From the NCBI RefSeq assembly GCF_003334355.1, contig NZ_QOWP01000006.1: 64,000 nucleotides of DNA. The stretch is one strand, 5' to 3'. Shown here one piece after another: positions 1 to 5,724 of this stretch. How positions within the stretch are numbered: position 1 is the stretch's first letter; every line of letters starts with the position of its first letter. This DNA comes from Escherichia coli. Its GTDB lineage: Bacteria; Pseudomonadota; Gammaproteobacteria; Enterobacterales; Enterobacteriaceae. The notes under the pieces are model-generated. The model made no database searches and was not told where the DNA came from. It saw nothing but the letters and a program-made list of their open reading frames with translations. Made by a program: the position numbers and the translations under genes.

Positions 1-765
1 ATCTTCTGCGACGAACATGGTCGCGTGCGGGTGAAGTTCAACTGGGACCGTTATAACCCGGCAGACCAAGACAGTTCGTGCTGGATCCGTGTGGCACAGG
101 CGTGGGCAGGCACCGGTTTTGGCCACCTGGCGATACCGCGTGTGGGTCAGGAGGTGATTGTAGACTTCCTCAACGGCGATCCGGACCAGCCGATCATTAT
201 GGGGCGCACCTACCACCAGGAAAACCGCACCCCCGGCAGCCTGCCGGGAACAAAGACGCAGATGACCATCCGCTCCAAAACGTACATGGGCAGCGGATTT
301 AATGAGCTGAAGTTTGATGATGCGACAGGGAGAGAACAGGTCTACATCCACGCGCAGAAGAACATGGATACCGAAGTGCTCAACGACCGTACCACCACCG
401 TAAAACACGATCACCGCGAAACCGTAAAAAATGACCAGACGGTCACGATCCAGGAAGGTAACCGCCTTCTTACGGTGGAAAAAGGCCACAAGATCACCGG
501 AGTACTGAAAGGGTCTTTATCTGAGGATGTCTTTCAGGACAGAGGCACGATTGCCGGTTCGGTGCATGTTGACGCTGTAAACAATGGTGGCGAAGGCGAC
601 GGTATACAGGCTTATACGGCGATTAAGGAAATTTTGCTGGCTGTGGAGGAAAGCAAAATTGCGCTGACGCCGGATGGCATTCAGCTACAGGTCGGGGAAT
701 CGACGGTAATCAGGCTGTCGAAGGATGGCATCACCATCGTGGGCGGTTCTGTTTTCATCAACTGA
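1..765 (+). CDS. vgrG: VgrG T6SS spike protein, C-terminal portion (5' end lies outside window)
   Basis: Open frame from base 1 to stop at 765; translation (..DEHGRVRVKFNWDRYN.., DPDQPIIMGRTYH) matches the conserved VgrG gp5-like region from memory; sits immediately upstream of an Eag chaperone and PAAR-Rhs gene. Confidence 0.8.
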   Translation: MFCDEHGRVRVKFNWDRYNPADQDSSCWIRVAQAWAGTGFGHLAIPRVGQEVIVDFLNGDPDQPIIMGRTYHQENRTPGSLPGTKTQMTIRSKTYMGSGFNELKFDDATGREQVYIHAQKNMDTEVLNDRTTTVKHDHRETVKNDQTVTIQEGNRLLTVEKGHKITGVLKGSLSEDVFQDRGTIAGSVHVDAVNNGGEGDGIQAYTAIKEILLAVEESKIALTPDGIQLQVGESTVIRLSKDGITIVGGSVFIN

Positions 766-792
766 TTCACTCAGATTATCAGGGAGTATTTT

Positions 793-3391: not shown

Positions 3392-5724
3392 GCCGTTACA
3401 CGGCGGCAGACGGCGCGGAGTGGCAGTACCGCTATGATGAGCGCGGCCTGCTCAGCAACATCACCGACACTGCCGGACAGACGTGGACACAGCTGTGCGA
3501 TGAACGCGGCCTGCCGGTGAGTCTGGTATCGCCACAGGGCGAAGAGACCCGGCTGGCGTACACCGCTCAGGGGCTGCTGTCGGGAATATTCCGCCAGGAT
3601 GAACGGCGTCTGGGCATAGAGTACGACCACCACAACCGGCCGGAAACACTCACCGACGTGATGGGCCGTGAACACCACACCGAATACAGTGGTCACGACC
3701 TGCCGGTGAAGATGCGCGGCCCCGGCGGTCAGTCAGTGCGGTTGCAGTGGCAGCAGCACCATAAACTGAGCGGCATTGAACGTGCTGGAACCGGCGCAGA
3801 AGGATTCCGCTATGACCGCCACGGCAACCTGCTGGCGTACACGGACGGTAACGGCGTTGTCTGGACAATGGAATACGGCCCGTTCGATTTGCCGGTGGCG
3901 CGAACGGACGGTGAAGGCCACCGCTGGCAGTACCGCTACGATAAAGACACGCTGCAACTGACAGAAGTCATTAACCCGCAGGGCGAATCATACCTTTATG
4001 TTCTGGATAACTGTGGCCGGGTGACGGAAGAGCATGACTGGGGCGGCGTGGTCTGGCGTTACCGCTATGACGCCGATGGCCTGTGTACCGCCAGGGTTAA
4101 CGGCCTGGAGGAAACTATCCTCTACAGCCGGGACGCCGCAGGCCGCCTGGCAGAAATCATCACGCCGGAAGGCAAAACGCAGTATGCGTATGACAAATCC
4201 GGCAGGCTGACGGGTATCTTCAGCCCGGACGGTACATCACAGCGCACCGGCTATGATGAACGCGGGCGGGTGAATGTCACCACTCAGGGCCGACGGGCCA
4301 TTGAATACCACTACCCCGATGAACACACCGTCATCCGCTGTATCCTGCCACCGGAAGATGAACGCGACAGACACCCCGGTGAATCCCTGCTGAAAACCAC
4401 GTACCGCTACAACGCCGCCGGAGAACTGACGGAGGTTATCCTGCCGGGGGATGAGACGCTGACGTTCAGCCGTGATGAGGCAGGACGTGAAGTGCTCCGG
4501 CACAGTAACCGGGGTTTTGCCTGTGAACAGGGCTGGAATGCAGCCGGTCAGCCTGTCAGTCAGCGCGCCGGTTTTTTCCCGGAAGAAGCCACATGGGGCG
4601 GGCTGGTTCCGTCACTGGCGCGGGAGTACCGTTACGACAGCGCGGGTAATGTGTCAGGCGTCACCAGCCGGGAAGATTACGGACGGGAAACCCGGCGGGA
4701 ATACCGGCTGGACCGGAACGGCCAGGTCACGGCGGTGACAGCCTCAGGCACCGGGCTGGGCTATGGCGAAGGCGACGAGACTTATGGCTATGACAGCTGC
4801 GGCTACCTGAAGGCGCAGTCTGCGGGCAGGCACCGGATAAGTGAAGAGACTGACCAGTATGCCGGAGGCCACCGGCTGAAACAGGCCGGAAACATGCAGT
4901 ATGACTATGACGCCGCAGGCCGGATGGTCAGCCGGACAAAACACCGTGACGGCTACCGCCCGGAAACAGAGCGGTTCCGGTGGGACAGCCGGGACCAGCT
5001 GACCGGGTATTGCAGCGCACAGGGTGAGCAGTGGGAATACCGCCACGACGCCAGCGGCAGACGAACGGAAAAACGCTGCGACCGGAAGAAAATCCGTTTT
5101 ACGTACCTGTGGGACGGCGACAGTATTGGGGAAATCCGGGAATACCGCGATGATAAACTGTACAGCGTACGGCACCTGGTGTTTAACAGCTTTGAGCTGA
5201 TAAGCCAGCAGTTCAGCCGGGTACGACAGCCGCACCCGTCCGTGGCCCCGCAGTGGGTGACGCGGACGAATCATGCGGTGAACGACCTGACGGGCCGTCC
5301 GCTGATGCTCTTTAACAGTGAAGGTAAAACCGTCTGGCGACCGGGACAGACCAGCCTGTGGGGGCTGGCACTCAGCCTGCCCGCAGACACCGGCTACCCG
5401 GACCCGCGCGGGGAACTGGACCCGGAAGCCGACCCCGGCCTGCTGTATGCGGGGCAGTGGCGGGATGCGGAATCGGGGCTGTGCTATAACCGGTTCCGGT
5501 ATTACGAGCCGGAGAGCGGGATGTACCTGGTGAGTGATCCACTGGGGTTGCAGGGAGGGGAGCAGACTTACCGGTATGTGCCGAATCCTTTAAGATGGAT
5601 AGATCCCTTAGGATTAAATAAAGGAGCTTCATTATCTAAAATGATGAATAGCTCCAGTGATCTCATGGGGTTGAGAAGGCAGCCCCAGAACTTCTGGCGG
5701 CTATATCGCGGAAAAGACATTTAA
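3352..5724 (+). CDS. rhs: Rhs YD-repeat core and C-terminal tip (continuation of the same rhs gene in a different frame)
   Basis: 790-aa ORF rich in YD/RYxYD repeats; ends with core-terminating motif ..YRYVPNPLRWIDPLGL followed by only ~35 aa and three consecutive stops (TAA TAA TAG). Confidence 0.8.
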   Translation: MEKFEYNAAHDQLSRYTAADGAEWQYRYDERGLLSNITDTAGQTWTQLCDERGLPVSLVSPQGEETRLAYTAQGLLSGIFRQDERRLGIEYDHHNRPETLTDVMGREHHTEYSGHDLPVKMRGPGGQSVRLQWQQHHKLSGIERAGTGAEGFRYDRHGNLLAYTDGNGVVWTMEYGPFDLPVARTDGEGHRWQYRYDKDTLQLTEVINPQGESYLYVLDNCGRVTEEHDWGGVVWRYRYDADGLCTARVNGLEETILYSRDAAGRLAEIITPEGKTQYAYDKSGRLTGIFSPDGTSQRTGYDERGRVNVTTQGRRAIEYHYPDEHTVIRCILPPEDERDRHPGESLLKTTYRYNAAGELTEVILPGDETLTFSRDEAGREVLRHSNRGFACEQGWNAAGQPVSQRAGFFPEEATWGGLVPSLAREYRYDSAGNVSGVTSREDYGRETRREYRLDRNGQVTAVTASGTGLGYGEGDETYGYDSCGYLKAQSAGRHRISEETDQYAGGHRLKQAGNMQYDYDAAGRMVSRTKHRDGYRPETERFRWDSRDQLTGYCSAQGEQWEYRHDASGRRTEKRCDRKKIRFTYLWDGDSIGEIREYRDDKLYSVRHLVFNSFELISQQFSRVRQPHPSVAPQWVTRTNHAVNDLTGRPLMLFNSEGKTVWRPGQTSLWGLALSLPADTGYPDPRGELDPEADPGLLYAGQWRDAESGLCYNRFRYYEPESGMYLVSDPLGLQGGEQTYRYVPNPLRWIDPLGLNKGASLSKMMNSSSDLMGLRRQPQNFWRLYRGKDI

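Follow-up and report, generated by a model that had tools for sequence, protein, structure and literature searches.

A very probable pseudogene remnant of an orphan vgrG-eag-rhs island of the type VI secretion system 2 type between cusS and nfrB of Escherichia coli

[quoted passage not shown] We consider it very likely that an E. coli "orphan vgrG island" of the T6SS-2 type, 10.4 kb long and located between cusS and nfrB, contributes its right-hand 8.5 kb to this region, and that it persists here as a pseudogene remnant. The rhs gene has a 67-bp deletion in its core and a one-nucleotide frameshift in front of its C-terminal toxin domain, and a T6SS is probably missing from the strain. The full window is colinear, at 99.95% identity and with no gaps, with the genome of E. 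coli PSS-12 (NZ_AP027697.1), which serves below as the nearest complete relative. E. coli islands of this type and their chaperone logic are already established, and with this copy a pseudogene, little is at stake for T6SS biology. The features that support this reading are listed below, with lengths in amino acids (aa) or base pairs.

1-765 (+): 3' part of vgrG, residues 379-633 of a 633-aa VgrG (TIGR03361, E = 6.9e-67)
793-1254 (+): eag chaperone gene of the DcrB/DUF1795 family, 153 aa, intact (Pfam PF08786, E = 1.7e-27)
1274-3342 (+): 5' part of rhs, up to the deletion (profile matches; alignment to Photorhabdus laumondii Rhs1/Tre23, 7pq5)
3343-3351 (+): deletion junction with a single GCCGGACGG copy (alignment with RM9513 and PSS-12)
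3352-5616 (+): 3' part of rhs in a shifted frame, YD-repeat shell and RHS-associated core (TIGR01643, E = 6e-53; TIGR03696, E = 1e-19)
5617-6017 (+): toxin domain of ~134 aa, split by a 1-nt loss (three-frame translation, homologs, repaired alignment)
6017-6304 (+): candidate immunity gene, 95 aa, intact (start codon overlapping that of the toxin stop in GTGATGA; AAGGGG ribosome-binding site upstream)
7125-8415 (+): ISAs1-family (ISEc1/"H-repeat") element, 1291 bp (NF033564, E = 7e-122; extent from comparison of copies)
8416-8533 (+): right end of the island (K-12 cusS-nfrB intergenic homology resumes at 8534, blastn against K-12)

The rhs gene is represented by two open reading frames (ORFs), 1274-3391 and 3352-5724. 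Intact alleles contain two GCCGGACGG 9-mers whose starts are 67 bp apart, and alignment with the unbroken 1505-aa rhs gene of RM9513 shows that the window and PSS-12 both fall short of it by 67 bp. Translation from 1274 gives about 690 native residues, followed by 15 out-of-frame residues and a stop at 3389-3391, and the PSS-12 gene is flagged as "frameshifted" by the Prokaryotic Genome Annotation Pipeline (PGAP). Of the 2125 complete genomes with this Rhs clade, 2085 have the core without the deletion, and a 60-mer specific to the junction detects the deletion in at most 28 complete genomes. The deletion is real but confined to one lineage and, judging from the sequence, it looks like a slippage event between YD-repeat units. 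An earlier note on this DNA had described a large Rhs gene; its assignment to the Rhs family stands, given the YD repeats and the RHS-associated core, but the gene is now in two ORFs with a core deletion and a frameshifted toxin.

Past the DPLGL motif, the Rhs frame continues for 35 aa and ends in TAA TAA TAG at 5722-5730, and it does so also in the alleles that pass as "intact". The -1 frame is open from about 5660 and runs through an 86-aa ORF (5757-6017), annotated by PGAP as a "hypothetical protein". A search with the stretch in the -1 frame retrieved 117 homologs, many of them 55 to 71% identical over 98% of it, including the part upstream of the ATG, and the repaired reading (...SSSDLMG/VEKAAPELL..., 134 aa) aligned without gaps to 64 homologs. 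What broke the frame is therefore a single G missing from a run of G (GGGG, 5666-5669). The form with four G is nearly fixed in E. coli with this toxin: among the 558 complete genomes that have the toxin region, 536 contain the exact 64-mer with four G, and the only match with five G is that of FCI51, whose rhs has lost its N-terminus and is flagged as a pseudogene. No intact Rhs-toxin fusion was found among the complete genomes. A search for the domain with a hidden Markov model (HMM) returned 448 cluster representatives, in proteins of up to 5,903 aa, and the domain is always at the extreme C-terminus; the four long domain-bearing proteins that were checked all possess an RHS-associated core, and two of them YD repeats. 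The domain thus forms, in frame, the C-terminus of proteins with an RHS core, and such a fusion is its normal state. Automated annotation presents the common allele as an intact "RHS repeat-associated core domain-containing protein" next to an 86-aa "hypothetical protein", when it is really one split toxin gene, and effector catalogues that count the locus as armed are therefore wrong for at least 536 complete genomes.

The secretion apparatus has probably been lost from the window strain as well, by comparison with PSS-12. The window contains no tss genes, and no T6SS lies next to the island, whose left neighbor in PSS-12 is cusS. In RM9513, a T6SS-2 cluster (hcp-tssM...tssB-hcp-vgrG-rhs) is found between an aspV-linked island and yafV, and this cluster is reported to carry a tagO-tssH deletion (PMC10562709). 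In PSS-12, the aspV locus consists of yafV, an ISAs1 remnant, IS1 and the tRNA-Asp gene aspV, and the T6SS-2 cluster is deleted. A chimeric query composed of an nfrB marker and RM9513 tssC matched two places in RM9513, the positive control, and one place in PSS-12 by sensitive blastn, that is, no tssC-like DNA in that genome. The earlier note had staked its interpretation on T6SS core genes elsewhere in the genome; the proxy PSS-12 has neither a T6SS-2 at aspV nor tssC-like DNA and, together with the two lesions of rhs, this leaves the working effector module that the note implied unsupported for this copy.

Alignment to K-12 places the island, 10,428 bp long, in lieu of 23 nt at the 3' end of cusS. 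In K-12, cusS and nfrB are adjacent with nothing inserted at the site, and K-12 homology resumes at 8534; the earlier note, which gave cusS as the K-12 gene where the island adjoins nfrB, is therefore right, whereas the end that it gave to the island (5724) falls short of the actual one (8533). The gene order in PSS-12, according to PGAP, is cusS, vgrG, a DcrB-related gene, Rhs ("frameshifted"), two hypothetical genes, ISAs1, nfrB ("frameshifted") and nfrA, and the succession of cusS, vgrG, DcrB, Rhs and, after variable content, ISAs1 and nfrB is common to PSS-12, RM9513, E2863 and LD22-1, in which the toxins differ. At least 80% of window positions 1-8700 is present in 823 of the 5426 complete genomes, and the PGAP annotation of the island is found in hundreds of E. 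coli genomes. The GC content drops from 56-63% across the Rhs core to 29-35% from about 5600 to 7250, which is the classical Rhs core/tip pattern. Rfam, promoter and terminator scans of the island yielded nothing above background, and a literature search by gene names found nothing relevant on a cusS-linked island.

HMM searches for VgrG, DUF1795, PAAR and the RHS repeat supported all the family assignments of the earlier note. The vgrG 3' end that it had recognized covers model positions 383-512 of the gp27/gp5-type profile TIGR03361, and the full VgrG of PSS-12, where the gene is complete, matches the model with an E value of 1e-187. Over residues 1-529, the island VgrG has 92% identity with the VgrG in the T6SS-2 cluster of RM9513; the last ~100 residues, encoded at 451-762, are unrelated, and the protein is a T6SS-2-type spike with a cargo-binding end of its own. 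The following gene, also correctly read as a DUF1795 ORF, contains the entire PF08786 domain (residues 7-137 over model positions 1-127 of 127), of the DcrB family, formerly DUF1795. Its product, labeled "DcrB-related protein" by PGAP, resembles the EagT6 structures 6xrf and 1tu1 (E = 1e-5), and its stop at 1254 lies just before the rhs start at 1274. The vgrG part in the window, eag, the 95-aa immunity-like ORF and the transposase gene of the insertion sequence (IS) all remain open.

Within rhs, the following elements were delineated.

1274-1432 (+): leader of 53 aa (best-supported start, GAGGG ribosome-binding site)
1433-1462 (+): exact prePAAR motif AARLGDEIQH, Rhs residues 54-63 (Pfam prePAAR_I, E = 7.9e-5)
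1463-1594 (+): predicted transmembrane (TM) region (hydropathy)
1667-1732 and 2069-2203 (+): split PAAR (Pfam PAAR_motif)
2243-2302 (+): post-PAAR hydrophobic stretch
2450-2626 (+): DUF6531 with the N-terminal cleavage region DPVDPVTG, followed by the first YD repeats
5599-5616 (+): C-terminal autocleavage motif IDPLGL (aligned with the D1338 cleavage site of Rhs1/Tre23)

No internal Met codon at the 5' end of rhs has a better ribosome-binding site than the start at 1274. The prePAAR motif, the hydrophobic helices and the PAAR-like segments proposed in the earlier note were all recovered: the motif is exact, hydropathy over residues 63-107 (Kyte-Doolittle means of 1.5-2.1 per 19 residues) predicts two hydrophobic segments within 64-107, inside the 60-110 interval that the note had pointed to, and PAAR_motif matches residues 266-310 (E = 5e-10) and, weakly, residues 132-153 (E = 0.012). 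The match to NF033420 (E = 2.8e-12) is under the curated cutoff of that model. One more borderline hydrophobic segment, at residues 324-343, lies past PAAR. The 3' part of rhs contains seven Pfam RHS_repeat matches and retains a core end of the PxxxxDPxGL type, PNPLRWIDPLGL, at 5581-5616.

Downstream of the toxin and its candidate immunity gene lie fragments in the low-GC tip and, after them, the IS transposase gene.

6331-6403 (+): remnant of a displaced earlier toxin, an LD22-1-type HExxH metallopeptidase C-terminal domain, cut within the motif (...LYEVYHEV/)
6432-6590, and 6595-6792 continuing in another frame to ~7070 (+): low-GC leftover ORFs, no assignment
7269-8405 (+): ISAs1 transposase, 378 aa, intact

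In two unrelated metagenome loci, toxin homologs are immediately followed by an ORF of 93-96 aa, and the similarity of the 95-aa ORF to those ORFs is not significant by BLASTP. A homolog search with the 95-aa ORF retrieved only close E. coli relatives and one 75% relative beside a toxin stub, and no independent immunity family could be built. The remnant at 6331-6403 is 82% identical at the nucleotide level to locus L013 and 72% identical over 25 residues at the protein level (E = 1e-10); a search with the fragment 6305-6590 gave near-identical E. coli pieces only, and the fragment was partly identified through the comparison with the LD22-1 toxin. The ORFs of 6432-7070 have no NCBIfam or PADLOC match and are probably further toxin/immunity debris; likewise, Pfam, NCBIfam and PADLOC searches of the Rhs tail, the 86-aa and 95-aa ORFs and the downstream fragments returned nothing. 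Since the sequence shared between alleles ends at about 5588-5615 and resumes at 7124, the swappable cassette spans 5616-7124. Other alleles at the site encode a toxin with a restriction-endonuclease fold (E2863) or an HExxH toxin (LD22-1). The 13-bp terminal inverted repeats of ISAs1 are imperfect (11/13, CAGGGAAAGATCA / CAGGGCAAGATTA); the ends were found by comparing IS copies, a repeat search having missed them. The earlier note was right that the island ends with an H-repeat transposase, but the element lies outside the 1-5724 interval in which it had been placed.

We read the detached toxin domain as a divergent zincin-like (Tox-MPTase4-like) toxin, with EExxH in place of HExxH and with Glu as the presumptive first metal ligand. 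The repaired toxin has no match among Pfam, NCBIfam and PADLOC models. An AlphaFold (AF2) model from 65 sequences (pLDDT 88, pTM 0.81) gave nothing significant against the PDB with Foldseek, nor did the sequence profile match anything in the PDB; against AFDB, Foldseek retrieved "Tox-MPTase4 domain-containing" proteins (E ~1e-4, TM-scores of 0.65-0.70), along with the C-termini of PAAR-like (DUF4280), PT-TG, WXG100, RHS and "S-type pyocin" proteins. The signature EEFLHGTQ ... E-x-H-V-K-D-F is invariant in the 65 sequences, and a weak hhalign profile match (E = 0.018) places EEFLH over the HEVIH of the LD22-1 HExxH toxin at the same locus. The predicted structure shares the zincin-like fold of Tox-MPTase4 (PF15640), whereas HExxH in that family is replaced by the invariant EEFLH, the first zinc-binding His having become Glu. 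The PF15640 model misses the family, with none of the 65 members detected at E<=0.001 and two at E<=0.1.

A tentative extension of this reading, to which we give somewhat less than an even chance, is that the domain represents a widespread and unannotated polymorphic-toxin family, with a zincin-like fold and an EExxH...ExHxKD signature, of which E. coli would hold only a frameshifted copy together with an intact immunity gene. The proteins that end in this domain are Rhs, PAAR-like, PT-HINT/PT-TG and WXG100 proteins, as well as giants of 4,000-5,900 aa. If this is true, the EExxH signature could mean another metal, chemistry or target than in known metallopeptidase toxins, and the E. coli locus would be the record of a weapon that was disarmed once and then spread. 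Such a family is the only item of the locus that is new, and mildly so. Of note, homologs of the EExxH toxin occur as stand-alone ORFs of 131-161 aa in two metagenome loci (L004, 617-3873, and L006, 3462-5239), within orphan toxin/immunity arrays that include an EndoU toxin, Tsi6 and DUF4926; the L006 array lies downstream of a protein of more than 1,150 aa.

By analogy with characterized systems, we propose that, in intact copies, a dimer of the Eag protein would shield the two N-terminal TM helices of Rhs, prePAAR and PAAR would together cap the tip of the island's own VgrG spike, and a T6SS encoded elsewhere in the genome would fire the complex. Rhs would then cleave itself at both ends of the YD-repeat cage, releasing the C-terminal toxin, against which a small immunity protein encoded downstream would guard sister cells. 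The toxin/immunity end would be swapped between strains, with old pieces piling up in front of ISAs1. In the window, a slippage deletion between the 9-bp repeats ends Rhs after its ~690 native residues, and the one-G loss that detached the toxin is an independent and earlier event. Other copies have decayed differently. In E. coli B (B-RalR, NZ_CP117043.1; locus L016, 5082-7089), a truncated vgrG is joined to the last ~170 codons of rhs, and the frameshifted toxin, the immunity-like ORF and ISAs1 are kept; the N-terminal truncation of rhs in FCI51 is another route. These several routes (67-bp slippage, vgrG-rhs fusion deletion and N-terminal truncation), accompanied in PSS-12 by the loss of T6SS-2, form a pattern that fits weapons eroding after the loss of their launcher, with the immunity gene surviving.

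Several observations weigh against the view that the locus is mere debris. First, the same frameshift is common to 536 genomes, which could mean that a toxin-less Rhs is useful rather than neutral. Second, the vgrG part, eag and the immunity-like ORF have no lesions, and some function of the locus may persist; position and size, and these alone, argue for the 95-aa ORF as a candidate immunity gene. Third, the absence of a T6SS is read from a proxy genome and from searches at the DNA level, and a divergent system such as T6SS-3 could escape blastn. Finally, an E. coli protein of 165 aa in AFDB/UniProt (A0A2X1N0Z2), corresponding approximately to window positions 5524-6017, is 89% identical to the repaired domain and reads through in frame, beginning at the Met of "...ESGMYLVSDPLGL". 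A compensating +1 in the A run at 5710-5718 would be in keeping with both its length and its identity, but such a change is seen in none of the 5,426 complete genomes, and the entry is either a homopolymer error or a rare revertant.

Another explanation is that selection maintains the locus for the small genes that are still intact: the 95-aa ORF would act as an orphan immunity gene against related toxins fired by other bacteria, and a toxin-less Rhs would remain the PAAR tip that the machine needs for firing in strains with both the Rhs core and a T6SS-2. This explanation is compatible with decay, and we regard it as rather unlikely. In its favor, the immunity-like ORF is unbroken, is preceded by a good ribosome-binding site and survives in three different decay forms of the island; in-frame homologs of the toxin exist in other bacteria, and the frameshifted allele is widespread, with an Rhs core that is otherwise intact in most carriers. 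Furthermore, Donato and colleagues are said to have reported in 2020, in Nature Communications, that the activity of the T6SS in Enterobacter cloacae depends on Rhs cages. However, outside E. coli even the closest homologs of the toxin reach only 55-71% identity, when immunity proteins are usually highly specific, the alleles are too alike for a test of purifying selection, and a structural role is unlikely in the window because the Rhs cage is truncated there. That the locus is instead a working T6SS effector locus, with both interruptions due to sequencing or assembly errors and a T6SS elsewhere in the genome, seems to us highly improbable. All the domain signatures are present, the vgrG part, eag and the immunity-like ORF are open, and the G-run lesion is a homopolymer change, the type of error typical of long reads; yet a 67-bp deletion is no homopolymer error and is identical in PSS-12 and about two dozen independently assembled genomes, 536 genomes, produced by many laboratories on many platforms, have the exact four-G form, the intact fusion is absent among homologs from ~15 billion proteins, and PSS-12 lacks tssC and the aspV T6SS-2 cluster. 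Least credible of all is a bypass of the toxin frameshift by programmed -1 ribosomal frameshifting or transcriptional slippage, yielding some full-length Rhs-toxin: a -1 shift anywhere in the ~60 nt over which the frames overlap (5660-5721) would indeed fuse them and the allele is conserved in hundreds of genomes, but programmed frameshifting is rejected because the overlap contains no slippery site (no X XXY YYZ heptamer in the Rhs frame, no long A/T run), the homologs show an ancestral reading that crosses the G run without a shift, as expected of a plain 1-nt deletion, and in the window the 67-bp deletion already stops translation 2.3 kb upstream. We retain the interpretation of the region as a pseudogene remnant of an orphan vgrG island.

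Elsewhere in the window, nfrB (8676-10912), which encodes a c-di-GMP-activated glycosyltransferase involved in phage N4 adsorption, is divided into ORFs of 522 and 223 aa by a single C deleted at ~10242 relative to K-12; the deletion is also present in PSS-12 and not in the other top matches, and E. coli B nfrB has an internal stop instead. In the 14945-16703 region, envY is directly followed by tRNA-Arg(tct) (15752-15828, minus strand) and then fimZ, and K-12 homology ends at 15799; the K-12 prophage DLP12 is absent, as are ompT and appY of the K-12 map. A fimbrial chaperone gene of the sfm/fim-like cluster (20892-21584, minus strand) has an internal stop in the PSS-12 record and is another pseudogene. 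At ~50379-51090, the site of the RhsD element, which in K-12 lies between ybbP and selU, is empty and, as in PSS-12, holds a 0.7-kb spacer with a toxin gene that PGAP names "dinQ" (50790-50873).

Among known systems, the closest is the orphan "vgrG island" of enterohemorrhagic E. coli O157:H7 EDL933, vgrG1 (z0707)-eagR (z0706)-rhsF, which has a T6SS-2-like VgrG and an Rhs of its own clade (PMC7216683); E. coli "vgrG islands" and EagR-associated PAAR-Rhs effectors were described by Ma et al. (2017, Environ Microbiol), as cited in PMC7216683. The EDL933 island shares with ours the order of vgrG, a DUF1795 chaperone gene and a PAAR-Rhs gene of a distinct clade, the location outside a T6SS cluster and the T6SS-2-type VgrG. 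Consistent with the own-clade description in PMC7216683, the Rhs studied here shares only 25% identity with the "RHS element core protein" that the T6SS-2 cluster encodes. The cusS-nfrB site is seen directly for the E2863 and LD22-1 alleles, whereas EDL933 is likened by gene order. The described alleles carry a restriction-endonuclease-fold or HExxH metallopeptidase toxin, in contrast to the EExxH domain, the 67-bp core deletion and the frameshift of the present copy.

The closest solved relative is P. laumondii Rhs1/Tre23 (7pq5), which the intact allele matches over residues 254-1471 (E = 7e-259). In that system, EagR binds the transmembrane domain (TMD) and the post-PAAR region, prePAAR-PAAR mounts on VgrG, and two autocleavages take place (PMC8636562). 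The layout of prePAAR, TMD, PAAR, post-PAAR, shell and C-terminal toxin is the same in the VgrG-EagR-Rhs1 (Tre23) system and here, and both autocleavage regions are conserved. P. laumondii Rhs1 has an ADP-ribosyltransferase as its toxin and is encoded within a T6SS cluster; the gene in the window is broken, sits in an orphan island and ends in a predicted zincin-like toxin.

More broadly, class I prePAAR effectors with Eag chaperones, such as Salmonella SciW-Rhs1 and Pseudomonas protegens EagR1-RhsA, are defined by an AARxxDxxxH motif (eLife 2020, PMC7773334). At the sequence level, the window agrees with this class in the motif, a single predicted TMD region, PAAR, the Rhs cage and a DUF1795 gene next to rhs on its upstream side. 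The motif precedes the first TMD, the TM region is single and N-terminal, and PAAR and the adjacent eag are present; a complete Rhs cage and a C-terminal toxin in one polypeptide are not. The motif starts at residue 54, in contrast to the first ~20 residues in class I effectors; in Tse6, it lies within the first 15 residues. A last comparison is with the Rhs elements of K-12, for which Hill and colleagues in 1994 and Jackson and colleagues in 2009 reportedly described H-repeats and the "C-terminal displacement" of rhs tips. The island resembles these elements in its GC-rich core, its AT-rich tip with orphan fragments, its 1291-bp ISAs1 "H-rpt" end and its displaced toxin remnant downstream, and it differs from them in that its Rhs belongs to another clade and that its site in K-12 is empty.

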